Shown here piece by piece: positions 1,699-17,252 of a stretch of 32,000 nt of DNA (position 1 is its first letter; each line of letters starts with the position of its first letter). The DNA lies in NCBI RefSeq assembly GCF_000025945.1, contig NC_006138.1, positions 3,210,001 through 3,242,000 of the forward strand. Direction: 5' to 3'. The notes below the pieces were generated by a model. That model was not told the origin of the DNA. It did no database searches and saw only the letters and a list, made by a program, of their open reading frames with translations. Made by a program: the position numbers and the translations under genes. The stretch is from Desulfotalea psychrophila LSv54. Its GTDB lineage: Bacteria; Desulfobacterota; Desulfobulbia; Desulfobulbales; Desulfocapsaceae.

Positions 1699-2406
1699 AT
1701 GAATGAGCTCATGTGGGTAGTAATGCTACTTACCAATTTTTCTCTAATCCTCATATGCTACAAGATCTATGGCAGAATGGGCCTCTACCTGTGGATCCCC
1801 ATCTCCACCATTATTGCCAATATTCAGGTGCTCAAACTCGTTGAAATCATGGGCGTTGAGGCAACACTGGGTAATATTGTCTATGCATCCTCCTTTTTGG
1901 CCACGGATATTCTTTCGGAGAACCATGACAGAAAGGATGCCAAGAGGGCAATCGGGATAGGTTTTCTCTCCCTCTTATCCCTTACCCTCCTGATGCAAAT
2001 GGCCCTGAAATTCACTCCCTCAGCCAACGACTTCAGCCAGGAGAGCCTGCAAACAATCTTTGGCCTAATCCCCCGCATCGCCTTGGCAAGTATTGTGGCC
2101 TATATCATCTCTCAGTCCCATGATATATGGGCCTTTCACTGGATAAAGGAAAAGACCAAGGGCAAAAAACTCTGGCTGAGAAATTGTCTCAGCACCATGG
2201 TCAGTCAGGCAATTGACACCATAGTCTTTATCATTATCGCCTTTTGGGGGATGTATGAGTGGAGTGTCCTTGTTGAAATTTTCTGGACAACCTATCTGCT
2301 CAAATGGGTAGTGGCAGCCGCTGACACACCCTTTCTCTACCTTGCCCGTTGGATGAAGAAGGAGGGGCATGATTGCCCTGACCAAGCTCCGGGGCACGCT
2401 CTCTAA
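1699..2406 (+). CDS. yhhQ: Queuosine precursor transporter, YhhQ/DUF165 (Vut1) family, polytopic membrane protein
   Basis: About six hydrophobic segments and YhhQ-like motifs (GNIVYASSFLATDILSE, SQSHDIWAFHWIK, VSQAIDTIVF). It lies beside queA. Confidence 0.82.
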   Translation: MNELMWVVMLLTNFSLILICYKIYGRMGLYLWIPISTIIANIQVLKLVEIMGVEATLGNIVYASSFLATDILSENHDRKDAKRAIGIGFLSLLSLTLLMQMALKFTPSANDFSQESLQTIFGLIPRIALASIVAYIISQSHDIWAFHWIKEKTKGKKLWLRNCLSTMVSQAIDTIVFIIIAFWGMYEWSVLVEIFWTTYLLKWVVAAADTPFLYLARWMKKEGHDCPDQAPGHAL

Positions 2407-2451
2407 CCCCCCCTAAAAGCCTAGGTTTTTTCACCTAAATTCATTCTGTCG

Positions 2452-2490
2452 CAAGGCATGGGGGCAAAGAGACATCCCATGCCTTGTTGT
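2452..2490 (+). terminator. Hairpin downstream of yhhQ (candidate terminator, weak T tail)
   Basis: Perfect 11-bp stem CAAGGCATGGG (2452-2462) / CCCATGCCTTG (2476-2486) followed by TTGT. Confidence 0.55.
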
Positions 2491-2637
2491 AGGCCGGTAA
2501 GTCTGGTATAACAAAATCTACGTCAAATATATTTCAATTGGTTATTTGGCGCACTTATAATATTGTGTAGGTCTTCTCTGCTCTAATGAGTGGGGCAGCT
2601 TTACCCATTAACACAAAATGATGAGGGCGTAGATTCC

Positions 2638-3384
2638 ATGTTTAAAAATAGGCTGTTAGTCTCGCACCAGAAGGTACCGCGTCCGACATACTCCATCCCT
2701 CTCATCATCTTCGCATTTCTTTTCTCCCTCCTTTTCAGCACATATGCCTGCGCAGAAGAGATCGAGAACAAGACCGAGATGTTAGTGGCAAAACGGCTAC
2801 AGCAACGTTACGATAGCATGAAAAGCCTCTCCTTCAACTTCTATCAGCACACCACGGCAGGTGTGGGTGGACGACCTAAAGTGGGCGAAGGTCAGGCTAG
2901 ATTTCTTAAATCCACTCGAACAGCGTTTATGCGTTGGGACTACCTGGCTCCTGAAGAGCAGGTACTTACCAGCGATGGCGAATTTTTCAGCATGTATTTT
3001 AAAGAGCTGAGGCAGATGATTGTCACCCCTGCTAAAAACCTCGAATCAGATATCACCTACTCCTTTTTTACCGGCAAGGGCACCCTCAAGAAAGATTTTT
3101 TTCTCTACCCGGCAGACGCCAATATCGCAGCAGAGTTGGTGGAATCGGAGAAGAGACAAATCATCAAACTGGTACCTAAAAAAACACAATCTCAGGTACA
3201 GGATATCCATGTTTGGGTAAATACAAATTCGCTTATTACCAGAATGCAGATTCGTGATCACTTTGGAACAATCACCGTGCTCAGTCTCAGCGATATAGAA
3301 ATTGACAGTATTGCCGATACGATTGAATCTTTAAAAGATTTTAGCTTTACTCCCCCTGTGGGCACTGAAATAATCAAACAGTGA
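2638..3384 (+). CDS. lolA: LolA-like outer-membrane lipoprotein carrier / LolA-fold periplasmic protein
   Basis: Signal peptide (..LLFSTYACA/EE). LolA-like pattern: RYDSMKSLSFNFYQ...G.G.ARFLK....FMRWDY..PEEQVLTSDGEFFSMYF. ATG at 2638 is preferred over the upstream GTG at 2590. Confidence 0.7.
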   Translation: MFKNRLLVSHQKVPRPTYSIPLIIFAFLFSLLFSTYACAEEIENKTEMLVAKRLQQRYDSMKSLSFNFYQHTTAGVGGRPKVGEGQARFLKSTRTAFMRWDYLAPEEQVLTSDGEFFSMYFKELRQMIVTPAKNLESDITYSFFTGKGTLKKDFFLYPADANIAAELVESEKRQIIKLVPKKTQSQVQDIHVWVNTNSLITRMQIRDHFGTITVLSLSDIEIDSIADTIESLKDFSFTPPVGTEIIKQ

Positions 3385-3436
3385 AATGCCGTAGTAGCAA
3401 GAACAATTAACACATATACAAAAAACGGGAAAAACA

Positions 3437-4627
3437 ATGGAAGAAAGTTTCGCAGACCTCTTTAAAGCCGAAGAAACCAAAAAAATAGTCAAACTAGCTC
3501 CTGGCCAAAAACTCACAGCAACTGTTGTTGGAATCAGCCCTGATACCATTTTCCTTGATGTTGGCGGAAAAAGTGAAGGCGCTCTCAATAGCTCTGAAAT
3601 GATCGATGGCGAAGGTAATCTCACCGTTGAAATGGGTGACAAGGTTGAGGTCTATTTTCTACAGGGCAAGGGTTCCGGCCCACTGTTCACCACCAAGATA
3701 GGATCCGGCGCTGACATTAGCCACCTGGAAGAGGCGTGGCGCAGTGCGATTCCCGTCGAGGGAATTGTCAAGGCAGAGATCAAGGGCGGTTTTGAGATCA
3801 GCCTCGGCGGTAAGACTCGCGCGTTCTGTCCATTCTCCCAGATGTCGCTTCGACGTGTTGCCGATCCTGCTAAGGAGTACGTAGATACCACCATGTCCTT
3901 TTTGATCAGCAAAATCGAAGAGAGCGGTCGCAATATTGTGGTTTCAGCCCGCGCCCTTGAAGAGGCAAAACGCGCTGAAATGCGGGATGAGCTGGTGGCA
4001 ACCTTGGCTGAAGGCCAAACCGTGGAGGGTGTTATTACCTCTATTCGTGATTTTGGTGCCTTTGTTGATATCGGTGCCATCGACGGACTTATCCCCATCT
4101 CCGAGATTGGTTGGAGCCGGGTCGAGCGAGTTGAAGAGTATTTCGCCGTGGGCCAGAAAGTGCAGGCCGTGGTCAAGAGCATTGATTGGGAGAAGGATCG
4201 CATCTCCCTCAGCTATAAAGACACCCTCACCGATCCTTGGATAGAGGCAGCAAAAGAGCTTGTTCCCGGCACCATCCTCACTGGCAAGGTAGTTCGCCTT
4301 GCCCAATTTGGTGCCTTTGTCAATATCGCCGAAGGTATTGATGGCCTTATCCATATCTCCAGACTTGGCAGTGGCCGTCGCATCAACCACCCCCGAGAGG
4401 CTGTTGAAGAGGGTCAGGAGATCGAGGTGAAGGTAGAGAGCGTTGACAGCGATAGCAAAAGAATCAGTCTTGCTCCATCTGACTTTGTCTCTGCCGAAGG
4501 CGAAGCCGATAAGGAAGAGGCTACCTTCAAGGAGTACGCCAAGAAGAAAAAGTCATCCAAGGAGAGCAGCAATATGGGTTCCCTTGGCCAACTCCTCAAG
4601 GCTAAGATGCTGGCAAAGAAGAAGTAA
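3437..4627 (+). CDS. S1 RNA-binding domain protein (four S1 repeats, Lys-rich C-terminal tail); short ribosomal-protein-S1-like
   Basis: Four repeats of the S1 pattern G..V.G.V..I..FGAFVDIG..DGLIHISE.... ...G..V.VKV..ID....RISLS. The basic KKKKSSKE...KAKMLAKKK tail follows. Confidence 0.85.
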   Translation: MEESFADLFKAEETKKIVKLAPGQKLTATVVGISPDTIFLDVGGKSEGALNSSEMIDGEGNLTVEMGDKVEVYFLQGKGSGPLFTTKIGSGADISHLEEAWRSAIPVEGIVKAEIKGGFEISLGGKTRAFCPFSQMSLRRVADPAKEYVDTTMSFLISKIEESGRNIVVSARALEEAKRAEMRDELVATLAEGQTVEGVITSIRDFGAFVDIGAIDGLIPISEIGWSRVERVEEYFAVGQKVQAVVKSIDWEKDRISLSYKDTLTDPWIEAAKELVPGTILTGKVVRLAQFGAFVNIAEGIDGLIHISRLGSGRRINHPREAVEEGQEIEVKVESVDSDSKRISLAPSDFVSAEGEADKEEATFKEYAKKKKSSKESSNMGSLGQLLKAKMLAKKK

Positions 4628-4648
4628 TTCCAACTCTGCCCTGAACTA

Positions 4649-4720
4649 CCGCGCCGCTCTTCTCCCCTTTTGGGGTGGAGCGGCGTGGTAAGCTATCAGC
4701 TTACAGCTTACAGCTTCTTT
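4649..4720 (+). terminator. Two consecutive hairpins after the S1 gene (candidate terminator)
   Basis: Stem CCGCGCCGCTC (4649-4659) / GAGCGGCGTGG (4678-4688, one G-U pair). It is followed by GTAAGCT-atc-AGCTTAC and CTTTT. Confidence 0.55.
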
Positions 4721-4740
4721 TCGATCCACCTCCCACTCAC
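4688..4740 (+). repeat. Copy a of a dispersed intergenic element: AGCT-rich hairpin plus CTTTT-CGATCCACCTCCC tail
   Basis: GTAAGCTATCAGCTTACAGCTTACAGCTT followed by CTTTTCGATCCACCTCCCACTCAC. Related copies are at 9217-9277 and 9913-10005. Confidence 0.6.
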
Positions 4741-5024
4741 TGTTCAACGTTCAGCCTGTTCCAATTATTGTACTCATCCAGCCCGACATCCACCCCATAA
4801 TTGTTCTTGGCCAATACACACATCTCCAGATCACCTGCAACACTACCCCTGTTACGATCAGAAAAAATTGTTCCATGAAGAGATTAATAATGTGTCATTT
4901 TATCTACATTGATTCTTTATTTCATTAGACTTTAACAACCAAAAGCAGTTAAGCTAAACTTACTGCCTTGTTAGGGAGTTGTCCGTCAGGAAAAGACACC
5001 CATATCAAACCTGGAGGTTATTAA

Positions 5025-6995
5025 ATGTGCAGGGCTACAAAAAGACGATTTATTGTTGGCTCAATACTATTTGCCTGTTTGTCCAATTCGCCAGCCTGGG
5101 CAGAAAATGAGATCTCGACCCCATTATTGCCAACAGCCAACAATTTTCGAGATATCGCCGGAATATCAGAGACACATGGCGGAAACGGATTTGTAAATGA
5201 TACCAGATATAAAGGCCTTATGCGAACAGGGGTGTTTTATCGTTCCTCAAAGCTCCAGGAGCTCAACTCGAAAGATTTCAACACAATCTCTGCTCTTGGA
5301 ATCTCGCTGGTTATCGATCTACGGAGTCCTTATGAGATTTCGCTGGCTCCTGACCTACCTTTACCTGGAGCCAGCTTAGTAAATCATAATATATACGCCA
5401 TTAATCCTCCAGTCTCTCCGCCAATTCCTGGTGACTCCCCTCCGCTAATAGACTCCACAACAGAGATGACAAAATATTTCCACGATTTTTATCGGAAATT
5501 CATCACTGATTATAAGCAGCGTGCTGAATTTAAATTAGTTCTCCTGGATCTGATCAACACTCCAGGGGCCGGGCTATACCATTGTACCGGTGGCAAGGAT
5601 CGAACGGGTTGGGTGAGTGTCATCCTGCAAAGTATTGCCGGCGTCTCCGATTCGACTATTATGAAGGATTATCTGGCTACCAATCTATATAGTGAAAAAT
5701 ATATAAATGAATTCCTGGTTAAGATCACGGATCCTAATAAAAAGATTGCCTACAGGATACTTGCTGGAGTGCAAGAAGATTTTTTACAGGCGGCACTTGA
5801 TCAGGTGGTCACTTCCTATGGGTCGATGCAGGCGTATTTGACTCAGGGCTTGGGATTAAGCCAGGCTGATATTTATCTCCTCCGGGCCAAAATGGTTTAC
5901 TACCAGACCCTACCCGGCCAAGCTCAGTTTTCCGGTAATGCTGCCCGAGGCGCAACTTTTCTCAACGCTTTACAGAACTCACCTCTTTCAGGGCAATACT
6001 CAAACTACAACTATTATCTACAGGCAGCTATTGATGCTGGCACCTTGGCTGGCGTAGAAACCAGAGTAGGTGGTCAGGTACATGCTGATGCAGCTGCATA
6101 TCTCTTGCGCCAACCACAGTTAATCGATAATGCCTTAACAACCCTTGCCAGTGGCCAAAATCTCAAATTTGGTGAAGGCAAGGCATGGCTATCAGGTGTT
6201 ACAGAAAACCAGGAGGTGTCAAGCCGTTCTGGCATAGCTAGCAGTGATAGCCGCAGCTCTGGTTTGATTGTTGGCGGGACACATCGTTTTAATGAAAATG
6301 CGAGCGCCTATGTAGGTGCAAGCTATATTTCAAACAAGGTCGAAAGTGCCAGCGCCGACGCTGATATCGACAACTATCTTGTCGTCTTTGGTGGACGTTA
6401 TGCCTTAGCAAAACTTGAAACTGGTCCCTATATGGGGGTCAGGTTCAGTGCCGGCGCCCTTGATTATAAGAGCACCCGGCCCCTGGATTATGGCCTTGGC
6501 ACGGCAACTGGTAAAACCGATGGCAAAACTTATAGTGGCCGTATTGACCTTGGTAATATTTTTGACAGAGGTACCTTTACGATCACACCGCAGCTTGGCC
6601 TGCTCGTCGCCCATATCAACCTTGACAGATTCGATGAACAGGGCAGTGAACTGGGCCTTCACGTCAATGGTATTTCCGAAACAATACCCAGTTTATTAGC
6701 TGAACTGCGCGTCGATCTCAATGGACGACAATTTGGTAATTGGCTGTTCCAGCCTTCCGCAGTGGTAGGCTATGAACGGGCATTAGACACCTCGAATGTA
6801 ACTAGTACGGGTTCGCTTTACGGATATCCCATAAGCCAGGAGTCAGCCTATGACAGTCGTGATCTCGCCAAGCTTGGTCTTGGGGTAAGCGCACGGAATG
6901 GGAACTTCAGTCTACAAGTTGGGGCTAATGTCATGGCCGGAGAAAATATCAACAGCATCTTAGGTGCTAACATCAACTTTTCATATACCTTTTAG
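5025..6995 (+). CDS. Secreted protein-tyrosine/dual-specificity phosphatase (CX5R, Y_phosphatase3/IphP-like) fused to a C-terminal autotransporter beta-barrel, paralog 1
   Basis: GGAGG RBS about 8 nt upstream and a signal peptide (..SNSPAWA/EN). The P-loop HCTGGKDRTG is encoded at about 5580-5609. The C-terminal ~270 aa show alternating beta-strand patterning and end in ..ANINFSYTF, an OMP-type terminal aromatic. The GKAWLSG...GLIVGG...GGRY... pattern is typical of type Va translocators. Confidence 0.85.
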   Translation: MCRATKRRFIVGSILFACLSNSPAWAENEISTPLLPTANNFRDIAGISETHGGNGFVNDTRYKGLMRTGVFYRSSKLQELNSKDFNTISALGISLVIDLRSPYEISLAPDLPLPGASLVNHNIYAINPPVSPPIPGDSPPLIDSTTEMTKYFHDFYRKFITDYKQRAEFKLVLLDLINTPGAGLYHCTGGKDRTGWVSVILQSIAGVSDSTIMKDYLATNLYSEKYINEFLVKITDPNKKIAYRILAGVQEDFLQAALDQVVTSYGSMQAYLTQGLGLSQADIYLLRAKMVYYQTLPGQAQFSGNAARGATFLNALQNSPLSGQYSNYNYYLQAAIDAGTLAGVETRVGGQVHADAAAYLLRQPQLIDNALTTLASGQNLKFGEGKAWLSGVTENQEVSSRSGIASSDSRSSGLIVGGTHRFNENASAYVGASYISNKVESASADADIDNYLVVFGGRYALAKLETGPYMGVRFSAGALDYKSTRPLDYGLGTATGKTDGKTYSGRIDLGNIFDRGTFTITPQLGLLVAHINLDRFDEQGSELGLHVNGISETIPSLLAELRVDLNGRQFGNWLFQPSAVVGYERALDTSNVTSTGSLYGYPISQESAYDSRDLAKLGLGVSARNGNFSLQVGANVMAGENINSILGANINFSYTF

Positions 6996-7048
6996 ACGGT
7001 TGCATCAGGCCTTGGTGGTGAAACACAATAATAGATTCTTGATCTCAA

Positions 7049-7088
7049 ACACTCCCTCTTGGCAAATGCTGGAGACATGTGGGAGTGT
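7049..7088 (+). terminator. Hairpin between the two paralogs (possible terminator/attenuator, no T-run)
   Basis: Perfect 8-bp stem ACACTCCC (7049-7056) / GGGAGTGT (7081-7088) with a 24-nt loop. Confidence 0.35.
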
Positions 7089-7235
7089 AATTATCAAAAC
7101 CAAAAAATATAGCATGGTGGCAGAAGTGGCCCCGTTTCATAAGCCACTGCCCTGATTTATTAATGATCGCCTTGTTAGGGCATTGTTCATCAGTAAAAAA
7201 ACACCCATATCCATATTAAGCCAGGAGGTTGTTAG

Positions 7236-9176
7236 ATGTGCAGGGCTACAAAAAGACGATTTATTATTGGCTCAATACTATTTGCCTGTTTGTCCAATTC
7301 GCCAGCCTGGGCAGAAAATGAGATCTCGACGCCATACTTAACCAGTGCCAGTAACTTTCGAGACATTGCAGGAATATCAAAAAACTATGGTGGAACCGGT
7401 TTTGTAAATGATACCAGCCATGAAGGCATCATGAGAACAGGAGTATTTTATCGTTCTCCAAAGCTCTTTAACCTTAGCTCGGTCGATTTCAATACAATCT
7501 CTGGCCTTGGGCTTTCGCTCATTATCGATTTAAGAACTCCTAAAGAAATTCAAGACGCTCCAGACATGTCTTTTGGTATTAATGAAGTATATCATAATAT
7601 CTTTGGTACCCAAGATACTCCCCATCTGTCCTACATTACCCCAGAAGATGTTAGGGTGAGCTTCCACAACGCTTATCGGGAATACATAACCGAGGAAGGC
7701 CAGAGAAAGGTATTGAAAAATATTTTTCTCGACTTGGCCAAAACTCCTAAGGCAGCCCTATACCATTGCACTGGTGGCAAGGATAGAACAGGTTGGGTGA
7801 GTGCCGTCCTGCAAAGTATTGCCGGCGTCTCAGATGCGACTATCATGAATGATTATCTCGCGACCAATCTATATATGGAGACAGCTGTTAATAAATTTCT
7901 AAAAGATTATCCTGAATCAATGTGGCCTATTCTTAAATTGCGTTTGGGAGTAGAAGCGAGCTATCTGCAGGCGGCACTTGAGCAGGTGGTCACTTCCTAT
8001 GGGTCAATGCAAGCGTATTTGCTCCAGGGCTTGGATTTAACACCGGCTGATATCTATGTCCTCCGGGCCAAAATGGTTTACTACCAGAGCCTACCCGGCC
8101 AAGCTCAGTTTTCCGGTAATGCTGCTAGAGGCGCAACTTTTCTCAACAGTTTACAGAACTCACCTCTTTCAGGGCAATACTCAAACTACAACTATTATCT
8201 ACAGGCAGCTATTGATGCTGGCACCTTGAGTGGCGTAGAAACCAGAGTAGGTGGTCAGGTGCATGCCGATGCAGCTGCATATCTCTTGCGCCAACCACAA
8301 TTAATCGATAATGCCTTAACAACCCTTGCCAGTGGTCAAAATCTCAAATTCGGTGAAGGCAAGGCATGGCTATCAGGTCTTACAGAAAACCAGGAGGTGT
8401 CAAGCCGTTCTGGGATAGCAAGCAGTGATAGTCGCAGCTCTGGTTTGATTGTTGGCGGGACACATCGTTTTAATGAGAATGCGAGCGCCTATGCAGGTGC
8501 AAGCTATATTTCAAACAAGGTCGAAAGTGCCAGCGCCGACGCTGACATCGACAACTATCTTGTCGTCTTTGGTGGACGTTATGCCCTGTCAAAACTTGAA
8601 ACGGGACCCTATATGGGGGTCAGGTTCAGTGCCGGCGCCCTTGATTATAAGAGTACCCGGCCCCTGGATTATGGCCTTGGCACGGCAACGGGTAAAACCG
8701 ATGGCAAAACTTATAGTGGCCGTATTGACCTTGGTAATATTTTTGAGAGAGGTACCTTTACGATCACACCACAGCTTGGCCTGCTCGTCGCCCATATCGA
8801 CCTTGACAGATTCGATGAGCAGGGGAGCGAACTGGCTCTTAAGGTCAATGGTATTTCCGAAACAATACCCAGTTTATTAGCCGAACTGCGCGTCGATCTC
8901 AATGGACGACAACTTGGCAATTGGGTCTTCCAGCCTTCCGCAGTGATAGGCTATGAACGGGCATTAGATACCTCGAATGTAACGAGTACGGGTTCACTTT
9001 ACGGAATATCAGTAAGCCAGGAGTCAGCCTATGACAGTCGTGATCTCGCCAAGCTTGGTCTTGGAATAAGCGCACGAAATGGGAACTTCAGCCTACAAGT
9101 TGGTGCTAATCTAATGGCTGGAGAAAATATCAACAGCATCTTAGGTGCTAATATCAACTTTCTATATACCTTTTAG
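7236..9176 (+). CDS. Secreted CX5R phosphatase-autotransporter fusion, paralog 2
   Basis: Same architecture as 5025-6995: identical signal-peptide sequence apart from one residue, HCTGGKDRTG at about 7764-7793, and an autotransporter-like C-terminus ending ..ANINFLYTF. Confidence 0.85.
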   Translation: MCRATKRRFIIGSILFACLSNSPAWAENEISTPYLTSASNFRDIAGISKNYGGTGFVNDTSHEGIMRTGVFYRSPKLFNLSSVDFNTISGLGLSLIIDLRTPKEIQDAPDMSFGINEVYHNIFGTQDTPHLSYITPEDVRVSFHNAYREYITEEGQRKVLKNIFLDLAKTPKAALYHCTGGKDRTGWVSAVLQSIAGVSDATIMNDYLATNLYMETAVNKFLKDYPESMWPILKLRLGVEASYLQAALEQVVTSYGSMQAYLLQGLDLTPADIYVLRAKMVYYQSLPGQAQFSGNAARGATFLNSLQNSPLSGQYSNYNYYLQAAIDAGTLSGVETRVGGQVHADAAAYLLRQPQLIDNALTTLASGQNLKFGEGKAWLSGLTENQEVSSRSGIASSDSRSSGLIVGGTHRFNENASAYAGASYISNKVESASADADIDNYLVVFGGRYALSKLETGPYMGVRFSAGALDYKSTRPLDYGLGTATGKTDGKTYSGRIDLGNIFERGTFTITPQLGLLVAHIDLDRFDEQGSELALKVNGISETIPSLLAELRVDLNGRQLGNWVFQPSAVIGYERALDTSNVTSTGSLYGISVSQESAYDSRDLAKLGLGISARNGNFSLQVGANLMAGENINSILGANINFLYTF

Positions 9177-9216
9177 ACGGTTGCATCAGGCCTTGTTGGT
9201 GAAACAGAGAAAAAAG

Positions 9217-9251
9217 AGCAGCTGTAAGATCTCAGCTATCAGCTGCTTTTT
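9217..9251. terminator. Rho-independent terminator after paralog 2 (A-run / stem / T-run, potentially bidirectional)
   Basis: AAAAAAG-AGCAGCTG (9217-9224) ... CAGCTGCT (9240-9247)-TTTT. The stem is a perfect 8 bp. Confidence 0.75.
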
Positions 9252-9277
9252 AACCTAAGCTCCCGTGAGGGTTAAAC
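9217..9277 (+). repeat. Copy b of the AGCT-hairpin + tail element
   Basis: AGCAGCTGTAAGATCTCAGCTATCAGCTGCT followed by CTTTTTAACCTAAGCTCCCGTGAGGGTTAAAC. Confidence 0.6.
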
Positions 9278-9514
9278 CTTCGGTTTGAATTGTTTCGATT
9301 TTACTCATTCATTGGCCAATATTCATTTTCTTTTACTCAAAAGAAAGGAGCCCTGCCACTACGGTCTTCGGCAGTGCGCCTCAAGTCCCACGAGAGGTTA
9401 AGATGGCTCGCTCAAACAAGTCAAACTCCTCTCGCGCAAATTTTCCCGCTGCTCAGCTCCGGACCAATGGAGATCGCCCAACCAAATTCAGTGCCATTAG
9501 TACATGGGCTTCCC

Positions 9515-9934
9515 CTTGGTATGGATCTGAATTCACCATCTCCTCAAGGTTTTGCCCTGTCTACATCTGTATATTGTCCGCCAACTCGGGTTTTCAGGTC
9601 GTCTACATATGTATATTGTCTCTTTCTTCGGTGTTTCGGGCTTTATACATTTGTATATTGTCTCTTGCTTCGGTGTTTCAGCCTTTATACATTTGTATAT
9701 TGTCTCTTTCCTCGGAGTTTCAGGCTTTATACATCTGTATCTTGCTCGACTACTCAAGTTTTTGAGCTTTATACGTTTGTTCACGCCCCGCCCCCTCAAT
9801 GTTTTGCCCTTTGTCTCTCTATATATTGCTCGATTACTCAGGTTTTCAGGCCTTGCCCATCTGGATATTGTCCGTTTCAGCAAAATTCCGGGCCTTACCT
9901 CAACAGGTGCGAGGTTTCAATCCACGCTCCCGTA
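9515..9934 (+). repeat. Non-coding tandem array 1: about 9-10 units with an exact 42-bp period; best-conserved units 9599-9724
   Basis: I phased the units by hand at 9557, 9599, 9641, 9683, 9725, 9767, 9809, 9851 and 9893. The consensus of the central units is CTTTATACATTTGTATATTGTCTCTTTCTTCGGTGTTTCRGG. Similarity decays toward both ends. Each well-preserved unit contains the inverted repeat TATACA-TT-TGTATA, or TACATATGTA. Confidence 0.9.
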
Positions 9935-10005
9935 AAGGAGAGTACACCAAGCTGTAAGCTATAAGCTGTCAGCTTCTTTCCAATCCACCCTCCCGTGAAG
10001 GAGCG
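9913..10005 (+). repeat. Copies d and c of the tail motif flanking an AGCT hairpin
   Basis: GGTTTCAATCCACGCTCCCGTAAAGGAGAG (9913-9942), then AAGCTGTAAGCTATAAGCTGTCAGCTT (9949-9975), then CTTCTTTCCAATCCACCCTCCCGTGAAGGAGCG (9973-10005). Confidence 0.6.
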
Positions 10006-10197
10006 ATTCTCAGGCTTACTGAGAAGGAAATACTTCGCGGCCAGGGCGGGGCCATCATTGCTGTTTTAGGAAGTGGAGAAATCTGGTATCTTGTTCCCCG
10101 AGTAGGCTATCGATATTCCCCACTCACAACAAAACTGTTTGTTTTCAATGCATTATACTTATCCCCACCCAGAGCACCGGCAGGTTAGAAGAGAGTC

Positions 10198-12480
10198 ATG
10201 AAAAGAAAAATTGAATTATTGGCACCGGGCGGAGACATTGACTCCATCAAGGCGGCCATTATAGCCGGAGCAGATGCTATCTACTGTGGTCTGGACAAGT
10301 TTAACGCCAGAAACCGGGCAGAAAATATAGGCATTGAAGAGCTGAATGGAATCTTAAGGCTTGCCCATAAGAACAGCTGTGAGATCTTCCTCACCCTCAA
10401 TATCATCATCATCGAGAGTGAAATACCCACCCTGATAAACCTCCTGAACAAACTGGTTAACACCGGCTTAGATGGTATTATTGTCCAGGATTTTGGAGCC
10501 TTTTACCTGCTCGAAAAATATTTCCCCAGCCTGAAGATCCACGCCTCCACCCAACTGACAAGCCATAATGAGGGGCAGATAAAATTTCTAAAGCGGCTTA
10601 CGGCTACCCGAGTCAATCTCTGCCGCGAGTTGAACCTGAATGAGATAAAAAGCTTAGCCAGAACGGGACATGAGCACGACCTCTTAACAGAGGTATTTGT
10701 CCATGGAGCAAATTGCATCTGCTTTTCAGGTATCTGCTACCTCAGCTCCGTTCTAGGCGGCAACTCCGGCAATCGGGGCAGATGTAGTCAGCCATGCAGG
10801 GACCAATATCTAACTACCGTCAGGGCTAAAAACTTTCCCCTGAACCTTAAGGATAATTCAGCATATGCTGACCTGGCGGAGCTGGCAGAGGCCGGGGTGG
10901 ACTCCATAAAGATCGAGGGAAGAATAAAAAAGTTTCACTATGTGCACACGGTGGTCAACTCCTGGCGGCAACAGCTCCGGAGGCTGAGCAACAAGGAAGA
11001 ACTGCTAAAAGACGATGAAAATCTGCACAGGGTCTTTAATCGGGGCTTTTCCAATGCCTTTCTTAAAGGGGATATTAATAGGAATATGTTTATTGATAAC
11101 CCCAGAGATAACTCTGCCCTCCATCTTGCGGAGATATACGGCGGTGCCAGCGATGAGAATGTAACAAGGGCCAAGAAAGAACTCTATGATCTGAAAACAG
11201 AGATCATAAATGATGTCAGGACGAGAATAGATCAACTCAGCATTGAAAGGGCGCCCTTAACAATAAGCGTTTCCGGAAAGGTTGGAGCCCAATTAAAGGT
11301 ATCTGTCACGACTCCTGATACCAGTTTCACCCTCTACTCAACGACTGAGCTTGCCCAGACTGGCAGGGCCATCACGGCCATAGCCACAAAAAAGGGCAGG
11401 GCCAACCAGGTTCTTGATTACGAAATATTACTCTCCAGATTCAAGGCAGTAAACGATACGGAATATTTCATTGAAACCCTGGAACTGGACGCGCTTGAAG
11501 AGAATCTCTTTGTCCCCTTCAAGGAACTTACCTCCCTTAAGAGCCAGCTCCTCTTCAAACTCAATGGAGAACGGGCGCATCATGCTCCCATTGATCTGCC
11601 CCGCTTAAAAAAACATGATGACAAAACAGAGAGGCCCTGCCTCTCCCTCTTGATCTCCTCCGCAGAGGATATCCATCTCTGCCGGGAGACTTCGGCGGAT
11701 GTTTACTTTCAACTACCCAGTAATTTCAAAAACAGCTTGGTAAAATTTATTGATCTCTTTTGCCAAAACGATAAACTGATCCCCTGGTTCCCCTCCATCC
11801 TGATAGGAGATGACTACCGTACTGCGGTGGAATTTCTTGAGCGAGTCAAACCAAAGGGTATTGTCACGGATAATACAGGAATAGCCCTTGCCGCCTATGA
11901 GCGAGGGATTAAGTGGGTAGCAGGCCCCCATCTCAATACGGTGAACTCTTTTAGCCTCCTCTCTTTAAAGGAAAAGTTTAACTGTTCCGGGGCGTTTATC
12001 TCAAATGAGATTAACGGGAGACAGATAAAAGCCATAAAAAGGCCCGAGGGATTTGACCTCTACTACAGCATCTATCACCCCATCCTCCTCCTCACCAGCA
12101 GACAGTGCCTCTTTCAACAGATCACGGGCTGTGCAAAAAAGAGGATGGACGAGAGCTGCATAGAGGGCTGCGAAAAAACCGCCTCGATTTCCAATCTGAA
12201 AGATGGCACCATCTTCATTGAAAAATCAAAGGGCAACTACCACCATGCCTACCATGAGACTCATTTCCTCAATACGGATATAGCAACTGACACAGAGGGG
12301 CTCTTTACCAGTCTCTTTATTGATCTGCGGGACATAGAGACCAAAACAGAGAGGGCGGTGGATAAGATCGACCTGATAAGGCTTTTTGCAGATCATCTCA
12401 ATGATAAGGCCGATTCAGCAGAAATACTGAAAAGGAACATCTCCCCCACAACCTGTCACCAGTATACAAGGGGCCTTTAG
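10198..12480 (+). CDS. Peptidase U32 family protein, long (760 aa) form
   Basis: N-terminus MKRKIELLAPGGDIDSIKAAIIAGADAIYCGL..FNAR, then HASTQ, E..VHG, and the cysteine motif CICFSGICYLSSVLGGNSGNRGRCSQPC (CX6CX15CX3C) characteristic of U32 proteins. Confidence 0.9.
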   Translation: MKRKIELLAPGGDIDSIKAAIIAGADAIYCGLDKFNARNRAENIGIEELNGILRLAHKNSCEIFLTLNIIIIESEIPTLINLLNKLVNTGLDGIIVQDFGAFYLLEKYFPSLKIHASTQLTSHNEGQIKFLKRLTATRVNLCRELNLNEIKSLARTGHEHDLLTEVFVHGANCICFSGICYLSSVLGGNSGNRGRCSQPCRDQYLTTVRAKNFPLNLKDNSAYADLAELAEAGVDSIKIEGRIKKFHYVHTVVNSWRQQLRRLSNKEELLKDDENLHRVFNRGFSNAFLKGDINRNMFIDNPRDNSALHLAEIYGGASDENVTRAKKELYDLKTEIINDVRTRIDQLSIERAPLTISVSGKVGAQLKVSVTTPDTSFTLYSTTELAQTGRAITAIATKKGRANQVLDYEILLSRFKAVNDTEYFIETLELDALEENLFVPFKELTSLKSQLLFKLNGERAHHAPIDLPRLKKHDDKTERPCLSLLISSAEDIHLCRETSADVYFQLPSNFKNSLVKFIDLFCQNDKLIPWFPSILIGDDYRTAVEFLERVKPKGIVTDNTGIALAAYERGIKWVAGPHLNTVNSFSLLSLKEKFNCSGAFISNEINGRQIKAIKRPEGFDLYYSIYHPILLLTSRQCLFQQITGCAKKRMDESCIEGCEKTASISNLKDGTIFIEKSKGNYHHAYHETHFLNTDIATDTEGLFTSLFIDLRDIETKTERAVDKIDLIRLFADHLNDKADSAEILKRNISPTTCHQYTRGL

Positions 12481-12611: not shown

Positions 12612-12668
12612 AAACTTCAGAACCCTTATGTTTTCCGCTTATAAATATATTTTTCGAGTCAGGTGCTT

Positions 12669-15600
12669 ATGAATTTTTCTATTAAGAAGAGCAAGGAAAG
12701 GCTACTTACGGCATGGGGAAAACGGGGTGTCCGTGTAGGCGTTTCTATTGCCACTGTTTTTTTATTGTTTGTACTCCTATTGCCCTTTGCAGTGAAACAG
12801 GGCGTACAGTGGTGGCTGGTGAAAAATGGTGCAGCGGAGGCTGTCATCTCGTCACTTTCGCTTAATCTCTTCACCGGCACCTTACATGTTAAAGGCGTGG
12901 ACGTACAGGGTGCACAGAAGATGCTTTTTGCAACCGATGGTTCGGGGCTTAAATTTGACATTTTAGGCCTGTTTGGTAAAGAGATACATATCGAAAGGAC
13001 CTATTATGACCATGTCACCATTCAGGTAAAACAGGAGGAAGATGGGCAGTGGAAAATTGCCTCATACACAACCCCCGAACAAAAAGAGAATAAACCAATC
13101 GAGGAGAGTAAGGGGTCGGATTGGACCATCCTCGTCGATGATGTGCATATTACCAACTCCTCAGTTGAATTTATAAGCCCCACCTTTTCAACAGTAGTCA
13201 CCATTGATGATGCGCAACTGACAAATTTTTCAACAGCAGCGGCTGCTGCTCCCGCTGATTTTCATTTCAAGGGTAAAATTGATAAGACACCGCTTGTTCT
13301 CGAAGCTGGAAAGTTACGGGTTCTACCTGATCTGATGGTGGCGGGGCAGATTAATTTGCTGGATTTTGATACGGCAAGCTTATCACCCCTATTAGTAGGA
13401 CAGTTAGAAAAGATTGCAGGGCTGTTCTCCATGGCTGGTCAGTTTAAATTTGAGATGAAGAGTGATACGACAGCTTTTCGATACGATGGTGATGTTAATC
13501 TAGCCAAAACTCATCTGAAAATGAAGGATATAAACTACCTGTCTGATCATACCCATTGGTCAGGAACTGTGGATGCGAAAAACGAATGGAGCCAGTTTAT
13601 TATAGATGGCGCACTGCTTCTTGATGGCATTGCCCTGGATCTCACCCAACAATCACTTTCTGTGGATAATAAGCATCTCTCTTTTAAGGGTAAAACAAAA
13701 GTCCATCTCGTTGAGAAAGGTGTCGTTCTTACCAGCGATTCAACCCTGATCTCAGATGGTATAATAGTAAAACAGACAGGGACAATTTATGGACATAAAC
13801 ATTTAAAGTGGCAGGGTACACTGGGAAATAAGCAGGATGCGCAACATTATCTTATTGATGGCGATCTCACCCTTGGTGGAATGAATATTAAAATGGCTGA
13901 TTCTGGCTTGGCACTTACCAATCAAGATGTTCAGTTTGCTGGTTCCACCGATATTGATTTGAGTTCGGCCTTGCAGATTACTCATAGGGGAAGTTTTGTC
14001 AGTAAAGGGTTTAAGGTTCTTGTAGGTGAAATGGATTATGGCCATGACCAGCTCACCTGGAAGGGGAACATTAGCCATAAAAATGGCATCCTTACGACCA
14101 GTTCTAGCAAAGGCACACTTCAACTCGAAAATATTTCATACTCACAGGCAGGAGCTTCCCCGCTCAAGGTGCATCTCAAGAACACCAGTTGGGCTGGGAC
14201 CCTCTCCTATTCTCCAGTGCAAGATGATATCTTTGCCTCCCTGGCACTTGCCGGCAAGGTAAACGCCAAGGGTTTTGCATATGCTCTCCCTGGCACTATG
14301 CCTCTGGATATAGGCCTTGCAAGTATTGCCTGCAATGATTTATCGGTTGGACGTGATGGTGTGCATCTTGGCACCTCACTCATAGACGGCCTTAGCATCT
14401 ACTCTCCTATTGCCAAAAGGATGGCACTGGAACTGCAAAAGATTACACTCACTGAAAGTACTGTCACACCAAAATATATGGTCTCCTCAAGGGCGGGAAG
14501 CTTTGCCGGGTTCCAGCTGTTTCCTGTTGACAAAAAAGATCAGCATAATGGAGAGTTGGAAGCCTTAACCTTTACTGGTTTCTCCTGGTCTCCTCAATCC
14601 GGAGTTGAGCTAAAAGGGTTGGTTGCTCAGGCATTGTCTCTTGAACTGGAGAGGGATACAAAGGGAGATCTTAACTTAGCCAAGTTGATAGCAAGTCTGA
14701 AAGATATTGAGAGTAAAGTAGATGGAGGTCAGACTGGCGAAGAAGTTCATAGGGAAGTCCCTGCCCAAGGAATCCAGAAATCTACTCCAGGCGTTAAGGT
14801 CGATAAAATTGAGTTAGTGGGCGACAACAAGATCCTATTCACCGACCATACCTTACTTGTTCCCTATCGTAGTGAAACAGTCTTTAAGAAGTTCCTTATT
14901 GAAAATATCGATACCTTGAATGCAAAGCAGGATACCTTGATAACGGTGGAGGCACTCCTCGAAAAACGTGCCCCGTTCACCCTTTCAGGTAAAATACGAC
15001 CATTTACAAAAAAGCCTGAAGAGAGCGTATCTGCCCAGTTGCAATTCAAGTTACGAAATTATCCTTTACGTAACCTCTCTCCCTATCTGGTGCAGGCGGT
15101 AGGTACGGGACTGGAGAGTGGACAGTTGAAGTTGCAAGGTACCTTTAAATTGGAAAAGGGTGAGGTTGATATTGAAAATAAACTGCTCTTTAAAAAGTTG
15201 GTTACTAAAGCCGTGGCACCAGAACTGGCAAAGCAACTCGACAATAAACTTCCCGTACCCTTAAACACAGCTCTTGGTTTGTTGAGAGATAGTGATGACA
15301 ATATCGCGCTCAGTATTCCGATCAGTGGACCCATTGACAAACTGGATTTTAACCTCACTAACATCTTTATAACAGCCCTCAGTAAGGCTGTTGTGCCTGC
15401 CGCCAGTTCTTATCTGATGTATGCCCTTGGGCCCTACGGCGCTCTTGCCTATGTGGGGATGAAGATTGGGCAGAATATCTTAGAAGTACATTTGCCACCG
15501 GTAAACTTTGTTAAGGGTGAAGAGAAGCTGAGCGTGGATCAGAAAGATTATCTGCAGAGAATCGGTAAGATCGTTAAAGAGGGCAAGGCAAATTCTGACC

Positions 15601-15839
15601 TTCAGGTTGTTCCCGTGACTAATGTTGCCCTTGAGCTTGGCCGAGAAGGTCAATTGGTGGCCGATTTATCTCAAGAGCAGCGTCAAAAAATGCTTAAACT
15701 AGGCCAGCTCAGAGCACAGATTATCCAAAAGTATCTGGTGGAGAAACAAGGCGTTGCTGCAGGAAAGGTGCTACTTTCCGTCACCAGGTTAGAAGATGGT
15801 TCGGCTTCTTCTCGGGTTGAACTACAACCAGAAGAGTAG
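12669..15839 (+). CDS. Large envelope protein, DUF748 / AsmA-like family (N-terminal membrane anchor, long beta-rich body)
   Basis: One N-terminal TM segment (VGVSIATVFLLFVLLLPFAV). It is followed by the pattern I associate with DUF748/AsmA-like proteins (..WLVKNGAAEAVISSLSLNLFTGTLHVKGVDV..). The body is long, repetitive and low in hydrophobicity. ATG at 12669 (GTG at 12663 also possible). Confidence 0.68.
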   Translation: MNFSIKKSKERLLTAWGKRGVRVGVSIATVFLLFVLLLPFAVKQGVQWWLVKNGAAEAVISSLSLNLFTGTLHVKGVDVQGAQKMLFATDGSGLKFDILGLFGKEIHIERTYYDHVTIQVKQEEDGQWKIASYTTPEQKENKPIEESKGSDWTILVDDVHITNSSVEFISPTFSTVVTIDDAQLTNFSTAAAAAPADFHFKGKIDKTPLVLEAGKLRVLPDLMVAGQINLLDFDTASLSPLLVGQLEKIAGLFSMAGQFKFEMKSDTTAFRYDGDVNLAKTHLKMKDINYLSDHTHWSGTVDAKNEWSQFIIDGALLLDGIALDLTQQSLSVDNKHLSFKGKTKVHLVEKGVVLTSDSTLISDGIIVKQTGTIYGHKHLKWQGTLGNKQDAQHYLIDGDLTLGGMNIKMADSGLALTNQDVQFAGSTDIDLSSALQITHRGSFVSKGFKVLVGEMDYGHDQLTWKGNISHKNGILTTSSSKGTLQLENISYSQAGASPLKVHLKNTSWAGTLSYSPVQDDIFASLALAGKVNAKGFAYALPGTMPLDIGLASIACNDLSVGRDGVHLGTSLIDGLSIYSPIAKRMALELQKITLTESTVTPKYMVSSRAGSFAGFQLFPVDKKDQHNGELEALTFTGFSWSPQSGVELKGLVAQALSLELERDTKGDLNLAKLIASLKDIESKVDGGQTGEEVHREVPAQGIQKSTPGVKVDKIELVGDNKILFTDHTLLVPYRSETVFKKFLIENIDTLNAKQDTLITVEALLEKRAPFTLSGKIRPFTKKPEESVSAQLQFKLRNYPLRNLSPYLVQAVGTGLESGQLKLQGTFKLEKGEVDIENKLLFKKLVTKAVAPELAKQLDNKLPVPLNTALGLLRDSDDNIALSIPISGPIDKLDFNLTNIFITALSKAVVPAASSYLMYALGPYGALAYVGMKIGQNILEVHLPPVNFVKGEEKLSVDQKDYLQRIGKIVKEGKANSDLQVVPVTNVALELGREGQLVADLSQEQRQKMLKLGQLRAQIIQKYLVEKQGVAAGKVLLSVTRLEDGSASSRVELQPEE

Positions 15840-15851
15840 CGTGTCGGAGAA

Positions 15852-17252
15852 CTATTTTTGTAACTTTTCAAGCATGGTAAGAAGCAGTTCATTAAAGGCC
15901 TGTTGCGCTGCTTCACCTTGATCTATCTTCTGCTTTGTTGTGCAGTTAAAGAATTTCTTACAGAGTGTAAGCTCTGCCCTTGACCACTCTTGGGTGAAAT
16001 TATGCTTTGCCAGTTCTGGTAAATTGCTTTCAGATGACAGAGAGTCCCGTCTGCCATGGGCCCAGTTGACAATCTGTTGGTAAAAAAGAAAAGAACGATT
16101 GAGCAGAATAAAGAGAAGCCTAATGTCTTTAGCAGGACCTATTGAGATCGTTTCATTGGCTATCCGTATACCCTTTATGGTGGAACTTTTTTCTATTGCC
16201 TTTTGTCCGGTGAAGAGAGCAGCCACGGCCCCACCTGCACTAGCCGCTGCGGTAAAAATCCCAAAGGTGAGTCCGGCAAAGGCAAGGTCAATTCCAGCGC
16301 CTAAACCTGCACCGCTGAGACCACCCAGGAGCATACATTGCTTTTTGCTTAGCCCTAATAACTGCCAATTTTTCGCAGTGAAAAGATTATCGCTGAGTAA
16401 AGGGTTAGGCGGGAGAGTGTAGTTGTAAATATTATGCTTATAAAGATCACGCAATCTGCTCTGCGCAGTTTTCTCCATCTGCTCTAACTGCTTTTTATAT
16501 CGATCAAAGAGATGGCGACGCGCAACATCTTCTCCTTCGTTTCCTCCGATCTTACCTTCTAAAGAGAAGCTCAGAGATTCTCCAAGCATCGTACTGATAA
16601 GTTCAGCTGCGCGCTGGGTGCGATCCTGCCAGTTTTGCTTAAAGGCAAGGAGTGCTCGCTGTAGCGGTTCCTGCCAGTCCTGTTCAATGGACTTAAGTGC
16701 TTCAAAGAGATGAATCCGTTCTCTGTATCCGGCATGGTGTGCATTGAACACCCTGTATGAGTTGAAAGTTTTTCTGAACTCATCTTTCCATATTTCCAGG
16801 TACTGACGGTTATCTTTGCAGTTGATTACCGCCATTCGTGGTCTCCCTGTTAAGCGTAAAATTTCAATTTCGCTCAGATCAACATTTTTTATTGGTCTTG
16901 ATCCATCCACAACATAGATTATACCAGCACCCCGTAAAAGTGGCTTGAGCAACTCAATGTCATGTTTCAGTTCGGGAATATCCTGTAATGATCTTACCAG
17001 AGTTTTGAGGTTTGCGGCCGGCGAGCCAGTACACTGTTTGAGCTCATAAAGGATTCTATTAGGGTTTTGAAATCCCGGTGTATCAGTGAAACGAAGAATA
17101 TCCTGATCGTCAATATTGATGACAAATGATTGGCAGAGAGTCGTCTCTCCGGGGCTGCTACTAATGCGTACAGAATCATCTTCTGCCAGAGTTGATAGAA
17201 CCGATGACTTCCCCTCGTTGGGATGTCCCATGATGGCAAATTCAGGAATCAT
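15852..17252 (-). CDS. P-loop GTPase with C-terminal DUF3482-like domain containing a Gly/Ala-rich hydrophobic segment
   Basis: G1 GHPNEGKS (aa 9-16), G3 DTPG (aa 57-60) and a G4-like NCKD (aa 144-147). The hydrophobic stretch LLGGLSGAGLGAGIDLAFAGLTFGIFTAAASAGGAVAALFTG spans about aa 308-349. The start ATG overlaps the upstream stop (ATGA at 17249-17252). The DUF3482 name is from memory. Confidence 0.8.
   Translation of the reverse strand: MIPEFAIMGHPNEGKSSVLSTLAEDDSVRISSSPGETTLCQSFVINIDDQDILRFTDTPGFQNPNRILYELKQCTGSPAANLKTLVRSLQDIPELKHDIELLKPLLRGAGIIYVVDGSRPIKNVDLSEIEILRLTGRPRMAVINCKDNRQYLEIWKDEFRKTFNSYRVFNAHHAGYRERIHLFEALKSIEQDWQEPLQRALLAFKQNWQDRTQRAAELISTMLGESLSFSLEGKIGGNEGEDVARRHLFDRYKKQLEQMEKTAQSRLRDLYKHNIYNYTLPPNPLLSDNLFTAKNWQLLGLSKKQCMLLGGLSGAGLGAGIDLAFAGLTFGIFTAAASAGGAVAALFTGQKAIEKSSTIKGIRIANETISIGPAKDIRLLFILLNRSFLFYQQIVNWAHGRRDSLSSESNLPELAKHNFTQEWSRAELTLCKKFFNCTTKQKIDQGEAAQQAFNELLLTMLEKLQK

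Follow-up and report, generated by a model that had tools for sequence, protein, structure and literature searches.

How do two neighboring genes come to be nearly identical at both ends and widely different in the middle? The question is raised by a tandem pair, here called A and B, in the genome of Desulfotalea psychrophila LSv54 (NC_006138.1, positions 3,210,001 to 3,242,000; this whole stretch of 32,000 nt is referred to as the window, and nucleotide positions are those of the window unless another locus is named). Both genes encode type Va autotransporters with a globular cysteine phosphatase as passenger, similar to MptpB and belonging to the “atypical lipid phosphatase” family PF13350. 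A and B are probably tandem, intact, lineage-specific paralogues of a widespread autotransporter class, in which an old duplication was followed by gene conversion at the two ends; the “probably” applies to this explanation as a whole, including the mechanism and the conversion.

The Two Genes and Their Products

Two open reading frames (ORFs) had been described in an earlier reading of the same DNA that was made without database searches (the sequence-only reading). Both were present as described, and the proposed succession of leader, CX5R phosphatase, linker and autotransporter barrel was upheld by Pfam profiles and structure models. The PF13350 profile (Y_phosphatase3; gathering score 22.2 bits) matched residues 35–291 of A (E = 4e-55, 187.8 bits) and residues 35–281 of B (E = 1e-54, 186.3 bits). 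PF03797 (Autotransporter; gathering score 26 bits) matched residues 387–634 of A (E = 1e-34, 120.8 bits) and 377–624 of B (E = 7e-35, 121.4 bits), covering the profile almost entirely (1–254 of 255). The C-terminal region thus scores as the autotransporter domain that had been expected there, and the terminal phenylalanine is found in both copies, which end in YTF; F656 and Y654 are at least 90% conserved among 62 relatives of the family.

By inspection, both proteins start with a Sec-like leader that ends in AWA and is followed by E. In A, the leader has a KRR n-region, a hydrophobic core and an AxA site, and reads MCRATKRRFIVGSILFACLSNSPAWA followed by ENE. The leader end of the consensus in the 62-member alignment is ...PASAQ, and the N-terminal helix (residues 7–19) is of low confidence in the AlphaFold2 model of A.

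Mosaic Divergence between the Copies

A and B are 81% identical overall. Their leaders are identical in 94 of 96 nt, a count of two differing bases where one had been claimed for the first 97 nt, and the C-terminal 401 codons plus stop are identical in 1131 of 1206 nt. The last 400 codons differ at 25 residues, in agreement with the two dozen or so estimated before. In contrast, codons 33–255 of the passenger have an amino acid identity of 55%, with 12 gapped columns in the BLASTP alignment, and A is longer by 10 residues. Within this region, an island of 83–87% identity is found around the P-loop (alignment columns 181–225), so that the passenger is indeed, as the sequence-only reading had it, far more diverged and carries indels except at the active site. 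The A/B differences are concentrated in two segments that flank the active site and are also variable across the family; these contain the most variable stretches of the A passenger (codons ≈91–165 and ≈211–250).

The identity profile, which had been singled out for a check of its flatness, is not flat, and silent sites are mosaic too. Nei–Gojobori estimates on the A/B codon alignment gave a synonymous divergence (dS) of 0.05 for codons 1–32, 1.07 for codons 33–260, 0.20 for codons 261–300 and 0.17 for the linker plus barrel; the corresponding nonsynonymous divergence (dN) was 0.32 for codons 33–260 and 0.03 for the linker plus barrel. A passenger dN/dS of 0.30 indicates purifying rather than positive selection and argues that both copies are functional. 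The “diversification of the cargo” that had been suggested therefore holds in the sense that the cores are old and divergent, but not in the sense of positive selection.

Breakpoints were located with a two-breakpoint maximum chi-square test that used only silent changes, at codons with an identical amino acid in the two copies. They were placed at codons 32 and 255, with silent changes at 39% of such codons inside (n = 123) versus 8.6% outside (n = 407). The observed statistic was reached by none of 300 permutations (0/300), and chance is excluded as the source of the mosaic. The homogenized 3′ segment of A comprises the last phosphatase helices (codons 256–291), a helical junction (292–385) and the β-barrel (386–656). 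The conserved part is made up of the secretion parts, as had been proposed, but its 3′ breakpoint falls within the conserved last helices of the phosphatase domain rather than at the domain boundary.

Homology extends into the flanks of both genes. On the 5′ side, 47 of 67 aligned columns are identical between 4965–5024 and 7169–7235, with one 7-nt indel, and the similarity is gone further upstream. On the 3′ side, 28 of 29 nt are identical between 6996–7024 and 9177–9205, after which the homology ends abruptly. The duplicated units span ≈4965–7024 and ≈7169–9205; their outer ends (4965 and 9205) coincide with the outer coordinates of the sequence-only reading, 4965 and 9207.

Around the P-loop, dS falls to 0.30–0.47 over ≈45 codons (≈5565–5700 in A, ≈7749–7880 in B), compared to at least 0.96 in both flanks. 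This intermediate value could reflect an older, short conversion tract or the sampling noise of 30-codon windows.

Probable Gene Conversion and Alternative Histories

Gene conversion is the best explanation of the mosaic and is well supported. The duplication would have come first, and is considered old because the silent sites of the passenger core are near saturation. Later, in one or more conversion events, the 5′ end of one copy (≈−60 to codon 32) would have been overwritten by that of the other, and likewise the 3′ end, from codon 255 to +29. The secretion parts would evolve in concert, with two differing enzyme cores retained under purifying selection. Since the two tracts have unlike dS (0.05 versus 0.17), at least two conversion events are suggested. 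Conversion of the secretion parts had already been put forward in the sequence-only reading, and it gains from the 6- to 20-fold difference in dS between segments and from the comparison with the family, in which A–B is the most extreme of 1891 pairs.

In the 62-member family, passenger core and barrel are conserved to the same degree (mean column conservation 0.68 for each), and 59% of the 1891 pairs have a barrel that is less similar than the passenger. The 94% identity between the barrels of A and B therefore reflects conversion, not constraint. For barrel-minus-passenger identity, A–B is the top outlier among all pairs (+0.39, compared to a family mean of −0.02 with a standard deviation of 0.09). 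The nearest relatives, P0003–P0005, come from metagenomes, and their orthology to A and B is unproven. In the passenger, A and B are 55% identical to each other versus 57–60% to these relatives (59–60% for each copy to P0003), and in the C-terminal part they are 94% identical versus at most 77% to any relative. Among 5.8 billion proteins, the nearest relative is 70% identical and is single-copy on its contig.

A different history, which we consider unlikely, starts from a recent duplication, after which codons 33–255 of one copy were replaced by homologous recombination from a divergent relative. The crossovers would have fallen in two conserved places, the leader and the end of the phosphatase domain, and the near-identical ends would be explained by the recent origin. 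Such a replacement leaves the same signature of sharp breakpoints and heterogeneous dS as conversion does, and passenger swaps do happen in the family (see the chimeras P0006, P0007, P0009 and P0011, below). However, a donor was not found, and in neighbor-joining trees A and B are sisters in the passenger (92% bootstrap) as well as in the C-terminal part (100%), each passenger being about equidistant from every other sequence. Furthermore, both cores have a low GC content at third codon positions (GC3; 0.41 and 0.39) and neither looks foreign, while the dS values of the 5′ and 3′ tracts fit separate conversions better than a single duplication date. As an indicator of a foreign origin of one passenger relative to the other, the two GC3 values were uninformative.

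A single duplication without any recombination, in which the passenger evolved under relaxed or positive selection and the secretion parts under strong purifying selection, has next to no chance of being correct: it would agree with the family conservation inside the passenger (0.54 where A and B differ, 0.82 where they agree) and with a faster passenger in this lineage, as suggested by the identities to P0013 (53–54% for A and B, 69% for P0003), but the mosaic in silent sites is beyond the reach of protein selection, the barrel is not more constrained across the family, and insofar as silent sites are neutral this history is already refuted.

Two points weigh against gene conversion. The sister grouping of A and B in the passenger tree could be a result of long-branch attraction, and with two sequences only, conversion and the import of a core from an unsampled close relative share one signature and cannot be separated by it.

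A tblastn search over 87 relative loci (L001–L087) found one other tandem, L029. In this locus, from an Acetobacteraceae metagenome-assembled genome, a truncated, passenger-only ORF of 222 aa (1333–2001) lies directly upstream of a full-length phosphatase autotransporter of 696 aa (2169–4259).

Predicted Structures

AlphaFold2 models of A and B were built on the 62-sequence family alignment and compared to the PDB with Foldseek. The predicted local distance difference test score (pLDDT) was 88.5 for A and 90.0 for B, and the predicted template modeling score (pTM) was 0.80 and 0.83, respectively. Both models consist of an α/β globular passenger, ≈80 residues of helices and an all-β C-terminal domain; no β-solenoid was present in them between residues 27 and 384. 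In A, helices at residues 351–371 immediately precede the first barrel strand. B differs from A by a shorter loop ahead of the first long helix and by another helix layout past the P-loop.

The best full-length matches were EstA (3KVN, E = 3e-19) and AaaA (9OQA, E = 5e-14), two solved autotransporters with globular passengers. These precedents speak against the sequence-only reading, in which a globular passenger was called non-classical. The passenger by itself matched a tyrosine phosphatase from C. difficile (8DHI, template modeling (TM) score 0.81), for which no literature was found, and M. tuberculosis PtpB (MptpB; 1YWF, TM 0.75). A sequence search of the PDB returned 8DHI (E = 6e-21), MptpB 1YWF (E = 3e-13, phmmer) and EstA (E = 2e-3). 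The C-terminal domain matched the NalP translocator (1uyn/1uyo, TM 0.85–0.86), BrkA (0.79) and EspP (0.72), and also Hbp and AIDA-I. DSSP delineated 13 long β segments in it, and the tentative assignment to the 12-stranded barrel fold is therefore based on the superposition.

Distribution of the Family and Exchange of Passengers

Both Pfam domains are present in 120 of the 120 listed relatives of A, and the named sources of these relatives include Fundidesulfovibrio, Desulfovibrionaceae, Desulfobulbus, Syntrophobacteraceae and Acetobacteraceae. When each species was represented by a single genome, a scan gave at least 583 matched stretches encoding relatives, the best 80 of which are full length. 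These include many Pseudomonas (the fluorescens, putida, koreensis and chlororaphis groups), Klebsiella, Enterobacter, Citrobacter and Raoultella, as well as Rhodopseudomonas, Paracoccus, Commensalibacter, Thermoguttaceae and Pirellulales (Planctomycetota), and a metagenome-assembled genome of Acidobacteriota. Proteins of the family carry the NCBI name “tyrosine-protein phosphatase”, and tyrosine-phosphatase passengers were included among the phosphatase/hydrolase autotransporters (PHATs) of Rojas-Lopez et al. (2018, Front Microbiol 8:2607; PMC5767081), where they are described as α-helical and without an autochaperone. The architecture, which occurs in hundreds of species, is annotated and was previously listed, is not new, contrary to the rarity implied in the sequence-only reading. 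That the architecture had not already been characterized was borne out: no experimental study of any PF13350 autotransporter was found in the library searched. A 2022 review of characterized autotransporters contains one phosphatase only, the acid phosphatase MapA.

Barrel-less natural forms that keep the linker (P0173, P0175, P0177–P0180) were rejected as such. Their alignment runs into the first barrel strands and then stops or diverges, showing them to be truncated or frameshifted autotransporters.

The helical junction between phosphatase and barrel (residues 292–385 of A, window 5898–6179; also present in B) has no Pfam model, and is better conserved across the family than any other part (0.83, versus 0.68 for passenger and barrel). 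With the junction plus barrel as query, an exhaustive search of 1.84 billion representatives gave only 30 clusters at E ≤ 1e-30. Outside of the phosphatases, the nearest relatives were autotransporters with Peptidase_S8 and PATR, with 24–35% identity over the whole 350-aa junction plus barrel, and these fit the finding of NalP, a subtilase autotransporter, as the best structural match. Since subtilase autotransporters have both the junction and the barrel, the junction is part of a translocation unit common to two passenger classes. For the same reason, the linker is ruled out as a separate enzyme domain. It may, speculatively, be the globular-passenger counterpart of the β-helical autochaperone.

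Four proteins, P0006, P0007, P0009 and P0011, from loci L001, L087 and L005, are passenger/translocator chimeras. Their passengers are 77–83% identical to those of P0070, P0077 and P0092, while their barrels are 36–42% identical to the same proteins and 76–82% identical to P0003. The bootstrap support for grouping them with the Desulfotalea-like proteins (A, B and P0003–P0005) is 0% for the passenger and 90% for the C-terminal part. In this clade, passengers and translocators thus have separate histories, and cassette-like exchange occurs in the family beyond the window.

Proposed Catalysis and Physiological Role

The P-loop HCTGGKDRTG is identical in A and B and fits HCXXGKDR[TA]G, the signature of the atypical lipid phosphatases (ALPs) defined around MptpB, a family with a catalytic Asp and a substrate-binding Lys in the loop (PMC3091653). 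In the 62 members, G190, K191, D192, R193 and G195 are invariant, and H186, C187 and T194 are at least 90% conserved; the NFRD and DLR motifs are, like the P-loop, invariant or nearly so. Thr at position 2 and a pair of basic residues put the loop of A and B in “group 2”, as for Lmo1800 and LM1. MptpB, Lmo1800 and LM1 dephosphorylate phosphotyrosine peptides and mono- and di-phosphoinositides, and the group-2 enzymes Lmo1800 and LM1 do not hydrolyze phosphatidylinositol trisphosphate (PIP3) (PMC3091653). Pho16B, a secreted ALP from a soil metagenome, is a promiscuous phosphomonoesterase with phytase activity (PMC6409689).

In the mechanism proposed here, the protein would be exported by the Sec pathway and its leader cut after AWA, the NalP-like C-terminal barrel would insert into the outer membrane, and the conserved helical junction and the ≈260-aa phosphatase would be threaded to the cell surface. 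There, the enzyme would most likely stay attached to the cell, as EstA and AaaA do, and hydrolyze phosphomonoesters by the CX5R mechanism, with Cys187 as the nucleophile, Arg193 and Lys191 binding the phosphate, and Asp192 as the general acid. The second variable segment (codons ≈211–250) aligns to the lid insertion of MptpB in the HMMER alignment. This position of the variable segments, and the loop and helix differences between the two models, lead us to expect that A and B differ in substrate access and in substrate range.

The most likely role, and the least certain part of our account, would be to free phosphate from organic phosphoesters outside the cell, for example from inositol phosphates, phospholipid head groups or phosphoproteins, in cold marine sediment. 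Extracellular phosphoester hydrolysis would be the most economical role for a free-living sediment anaerobe. Several points count against this role. The surface display, activity and substrate of A and B are themselves inferred only. No conserved gene partner was present in nine loci of eight relatives, nor in the window, leaving phosphate scavenging unsupported by context. The window has no Pho box (best score 9/14), and upstream of the orthologues a score of at least 11/14 was reached in 6 of 85 regions versus 16 of 850 random windows, a weak signal. Five of the six matches are ≈60–130 nt ahead of the start. Regulation by a Pho box was set aside, the signal being too weak for use.

In locus L087, the autotransporter adjoins a PF04185 phosphoesterase gene, a gene for a large protein that matches PF04185 only faintly, an OEP gene and an autotransporter ORF of 316 aa that consists of the barrel alone (2378–7843, 10105–11055); the PF04185 neighbors are the sole hint of phosphoesters in any inspected neighborhood. 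In L005 (3514–7044), the phosphatase autotransporter adjoins a 1176-aa PATR autotransporter.

We give little credence to a role on eukaryotic cells instead of on dissolved nutrients. In this view, once the bacterium has been engulfed by a protist grazer, the enzyme would remove phosphatidylinositol 3-phosphate (PI3P), the 3,5-bisphosphate (PI(3,5)P2) or phosphotyrosine from the membrane of the phagosome and thereby block digestion, as MptpB does in macrophages. The passenger is related to MptpB in both structure and sequence and has the same group-2 P-loop, a surface-tethered enzyme would face the phagosomal membrane, and the family is common in Pseudomonas and Enterobacterales of soil and rhizosphere, both of them heavily grazed. 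However, D. psychrophila is a free-living anaerobe of permanently cold sediment, the environmental relative Pho16B is a promiscuous phosphomonoesterase and phytase, and lipid-binding modules are absent from ALPs (PMC3091653).

Genomic Context and Other Features of the Window

The gene order is S1-domain gene, A, B, U32 peptidase gene, with A and B on the same strand (Table 1). The neighborhood of the pair is of the housekeeping kind (QueA, YhhQ-like, LolA, S1, U32 peptidase), and no mobile-element genes were found near the pair. The ribosome-binding site (RBS) of A is GGAGG at 5013–5017. The spacer between the duplicated units likely carries the promoter-distal region of B itself.

Table 1. 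Features of the tandem phosphatase autotransporter genes, in window coordinates.
Feature	Position	Strand	Remarks
5′ end of unit 1: promoter-proximal region and RBS of A	4965..5024	+	homologous to 7169–7235
Copy A, phosphatase autotransporter	5025..6995	+	656 aa; annotated D. psychrophila “tyrosine-protein phosphatase” (P0001), 100% identity
Predicted Sec leader of A, MCRATKRRFIVGSILFACLSNSPAWA, cut after AWA	5025..5102	+	by inspection
Divergent passenger core of A, codons 33–255, not homogenized with B	5121..5789	+	aa identity with B, 55%
Catalytic P-loop HCTGGKDRTG of A (Cys187, Lys191, Asp192, Arg193)	5580..5609	+	fits the ALP signature
Homogenized 3′ part of A	5790..6992	+	identity with B: nt, 93.8%; aa, 94%
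3′ end of duplicated unit 1, non-coding	6996..7024	+	homologous to 9177–9205
Unique 144-nt spacer between units	7025..7168	+	not similar to the sequence that precedes A
5′ end of unit 2: promoter-proximal region and RBS of B	7169..7235	+	homologous to 4965–5024
Copy B, phosphatase autotransporter	7236..9176	+	646 aa (P0002)
Divergent passenger core of B, codons 33–245	7332..7970	+	10 aa shorter than in A
Catalytic P-loop HCTGGKDRTG of B	7764..7793	+	fits the ALP signature
Homogenized 3′ part of B: phosphatase domain end, junction, barrel	7971..9173	+	
3′ end of duplicated unit 2	9177..9205	+	homologous to 6996–7024

A direct element of ≈41–55 nt, found at 4690–4730 and 9949–10003, brackets a 5.2-kb segment that holds both genes, and a weaker third copy lies at 9219–9271, 43 nt past the stop of B. 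It is made up of a quasi-palindrome, AAGCT.T.AGCT...AGCT.TCAGCTT, followed by CTTT.C.ATCCACC(C)TCCC. Its core, CAGCTTCTTTYCRATCCACC, occurs only at 4711 and 9970 in the window, with 0.01 occurrences expected by chance. The element may be terminator-like, a dispersed element similar to repetitive extragenic palindromic (REP) sequences, or the trace of an insertion of the segment.

B is separated from the U32 peptidase gene by a non-coding gap of 1 kb, in which a 42-bp tandem array is found at 9542–9897, with about eight progressively degenerate copies (Tandem Repeats Finder: 9604–9744, period 42, 89% matches). The array had no Rfam match, and a 224-aa ORF across it (9290–9964) had no Pfam match. 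Rfam gave no match over the whole window, and promoter and terminator scans of the window remained at background level. Further downstream, at 12663–18796, a 1058-aa DUF748 protein is encoded, with a DUF3482 GTPase/DUF2868 gene pair on the opposite strand; these proteins are all conserved and apparently unrelated to the autotransporters.

Significance

By itself, the locus is an unremarkable member of a family already annotated in databases and opens no new category. The gap lies in the class: it is found in hundreds of species, among them such well-studied bacteria as Pseudomonas and Klebsiella, and has a validated drug target against tuberculosis as a relative, and published experiments on it were not found in the searched library. 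The pair provides two natural variants on a near-identical export chassis, convenient for asking what the variable loops do. It is also a clean bacterial case of partial concerted evolution, with homogenized ends, a divergent core that is kept, and sharp breakpoints.

A broader proposition, distinctly unlikely, is that PF13350 autotransporters of environmental Gram-negative bacteria are a widespread, unrecognized class of surface phosphatases for phosphoinositides and inositol phosphates, of which D. psychrophila keeps two versions with different substrate-access loops on a shared, interchangeable chassis maintained by conversion. If this were true, the family would be to free-living bacteria what the virulence factor MptpB is to M. 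tuberculosis and would either mineralize organic phosphorus in sediment and soil or defend against digestion in protist phagosomes. The chimeras in the family would then mean that enzyme cores are swapped between lineages as cassettes.

Comparison with Known Systems

The tyrosine-phosphatase subclass of PHATs shares with A and B the barrel of the type Va secretion system (T5aSS) and an α-helical, globular passenger like a protein tyrosine phosphatase, without autochaperone or β-helix (PMC5767081). That paper is a bioinformatic listing and, unlike the present analysis, has nothing on paralogy, conversion or function; the name Desulfotalea was not found in the accessible part of its supplements.

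In their catalytic domain, A and B resemble MptpB, Lmo1800/LipA and Lmo1935 of Listeria, LM1 of Leishmania, and Pho16B, all of which have PF13350 and the ALP P-loop with a catalytic Asp and two basic residues. Pho16B, like A and B, also has a signal peptide. Relative to MptpB, the window protein in the HMMER alignment has a 12-residue gap inside the lid insertion, so that part of the insertion is probably lacking, and the region of insertion 1 is unaligned. ALPs are described as single-domain (Beresford 2010), a descriptive trait from which A and B depart by the 360-aa junction plus barrel that fuses the enzyme to its own outer-membrane translocator; it is the delivery that differs, not the catalytic domain. 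MapA of Moraxella catarrhalis, an acid-phosphatase autotransporter and the sole characterized phosphatase autotransporter (Hoopman et al. 2008, as cited in the 2022 review), is a precedent for the surface display of a phosphomonoesterase via the T5aSS. It differs from A and B in belonging to another phosphatase family with a non-homologous passenger, the C-terminal part of which is predicted to be β-helical.

The closest translocation unit outside of the phosphatases is that of the subtilase autotransporters of the NalP and Ssp type (Peptidase_S8, PATR and PF03797), in which, unlike in A and B, the passenger is a protease of ≈600 aa with PATR repeats. NalP is released by autoproteolysis; A and B give no evidence for such release. 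EstA and AaaA share with A and B a globular enzyme passenger and the lack of a β-helix. In both, the globular enzyme is carried on a helix that passes through a 12-stranded barrel, and stays attached to the cell. However, EstA is a GDSL esterase and AaaA an M28 aminopeptidase, whereas A and B are CX5R phosphatases with a different fold and chemistry, and sequence similarity is marginal and limited to the barrel (E = 2e-3; NCBIfam EstP 28 bits, compared to a cut-off of 1000).

For the mosaic, a likeness is found among paralogous outer-membrane proteins with concerted evolution of their ends, for example babA and babB of Helicobacter pylori, in which gene conversion keeps the 5′ and 3′ segments near-identical, while the central, surface-exposed segment that determines function is divergent. 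A and B have the same homogenized ends and divergent center. The bab genes, however, are host-adhesion genes of a pathogen under immune selection, whereas A and B are adjacent enzyme genes of a sediment anaerobe, in which the center is under purifying selection (dN/dS 0.30).

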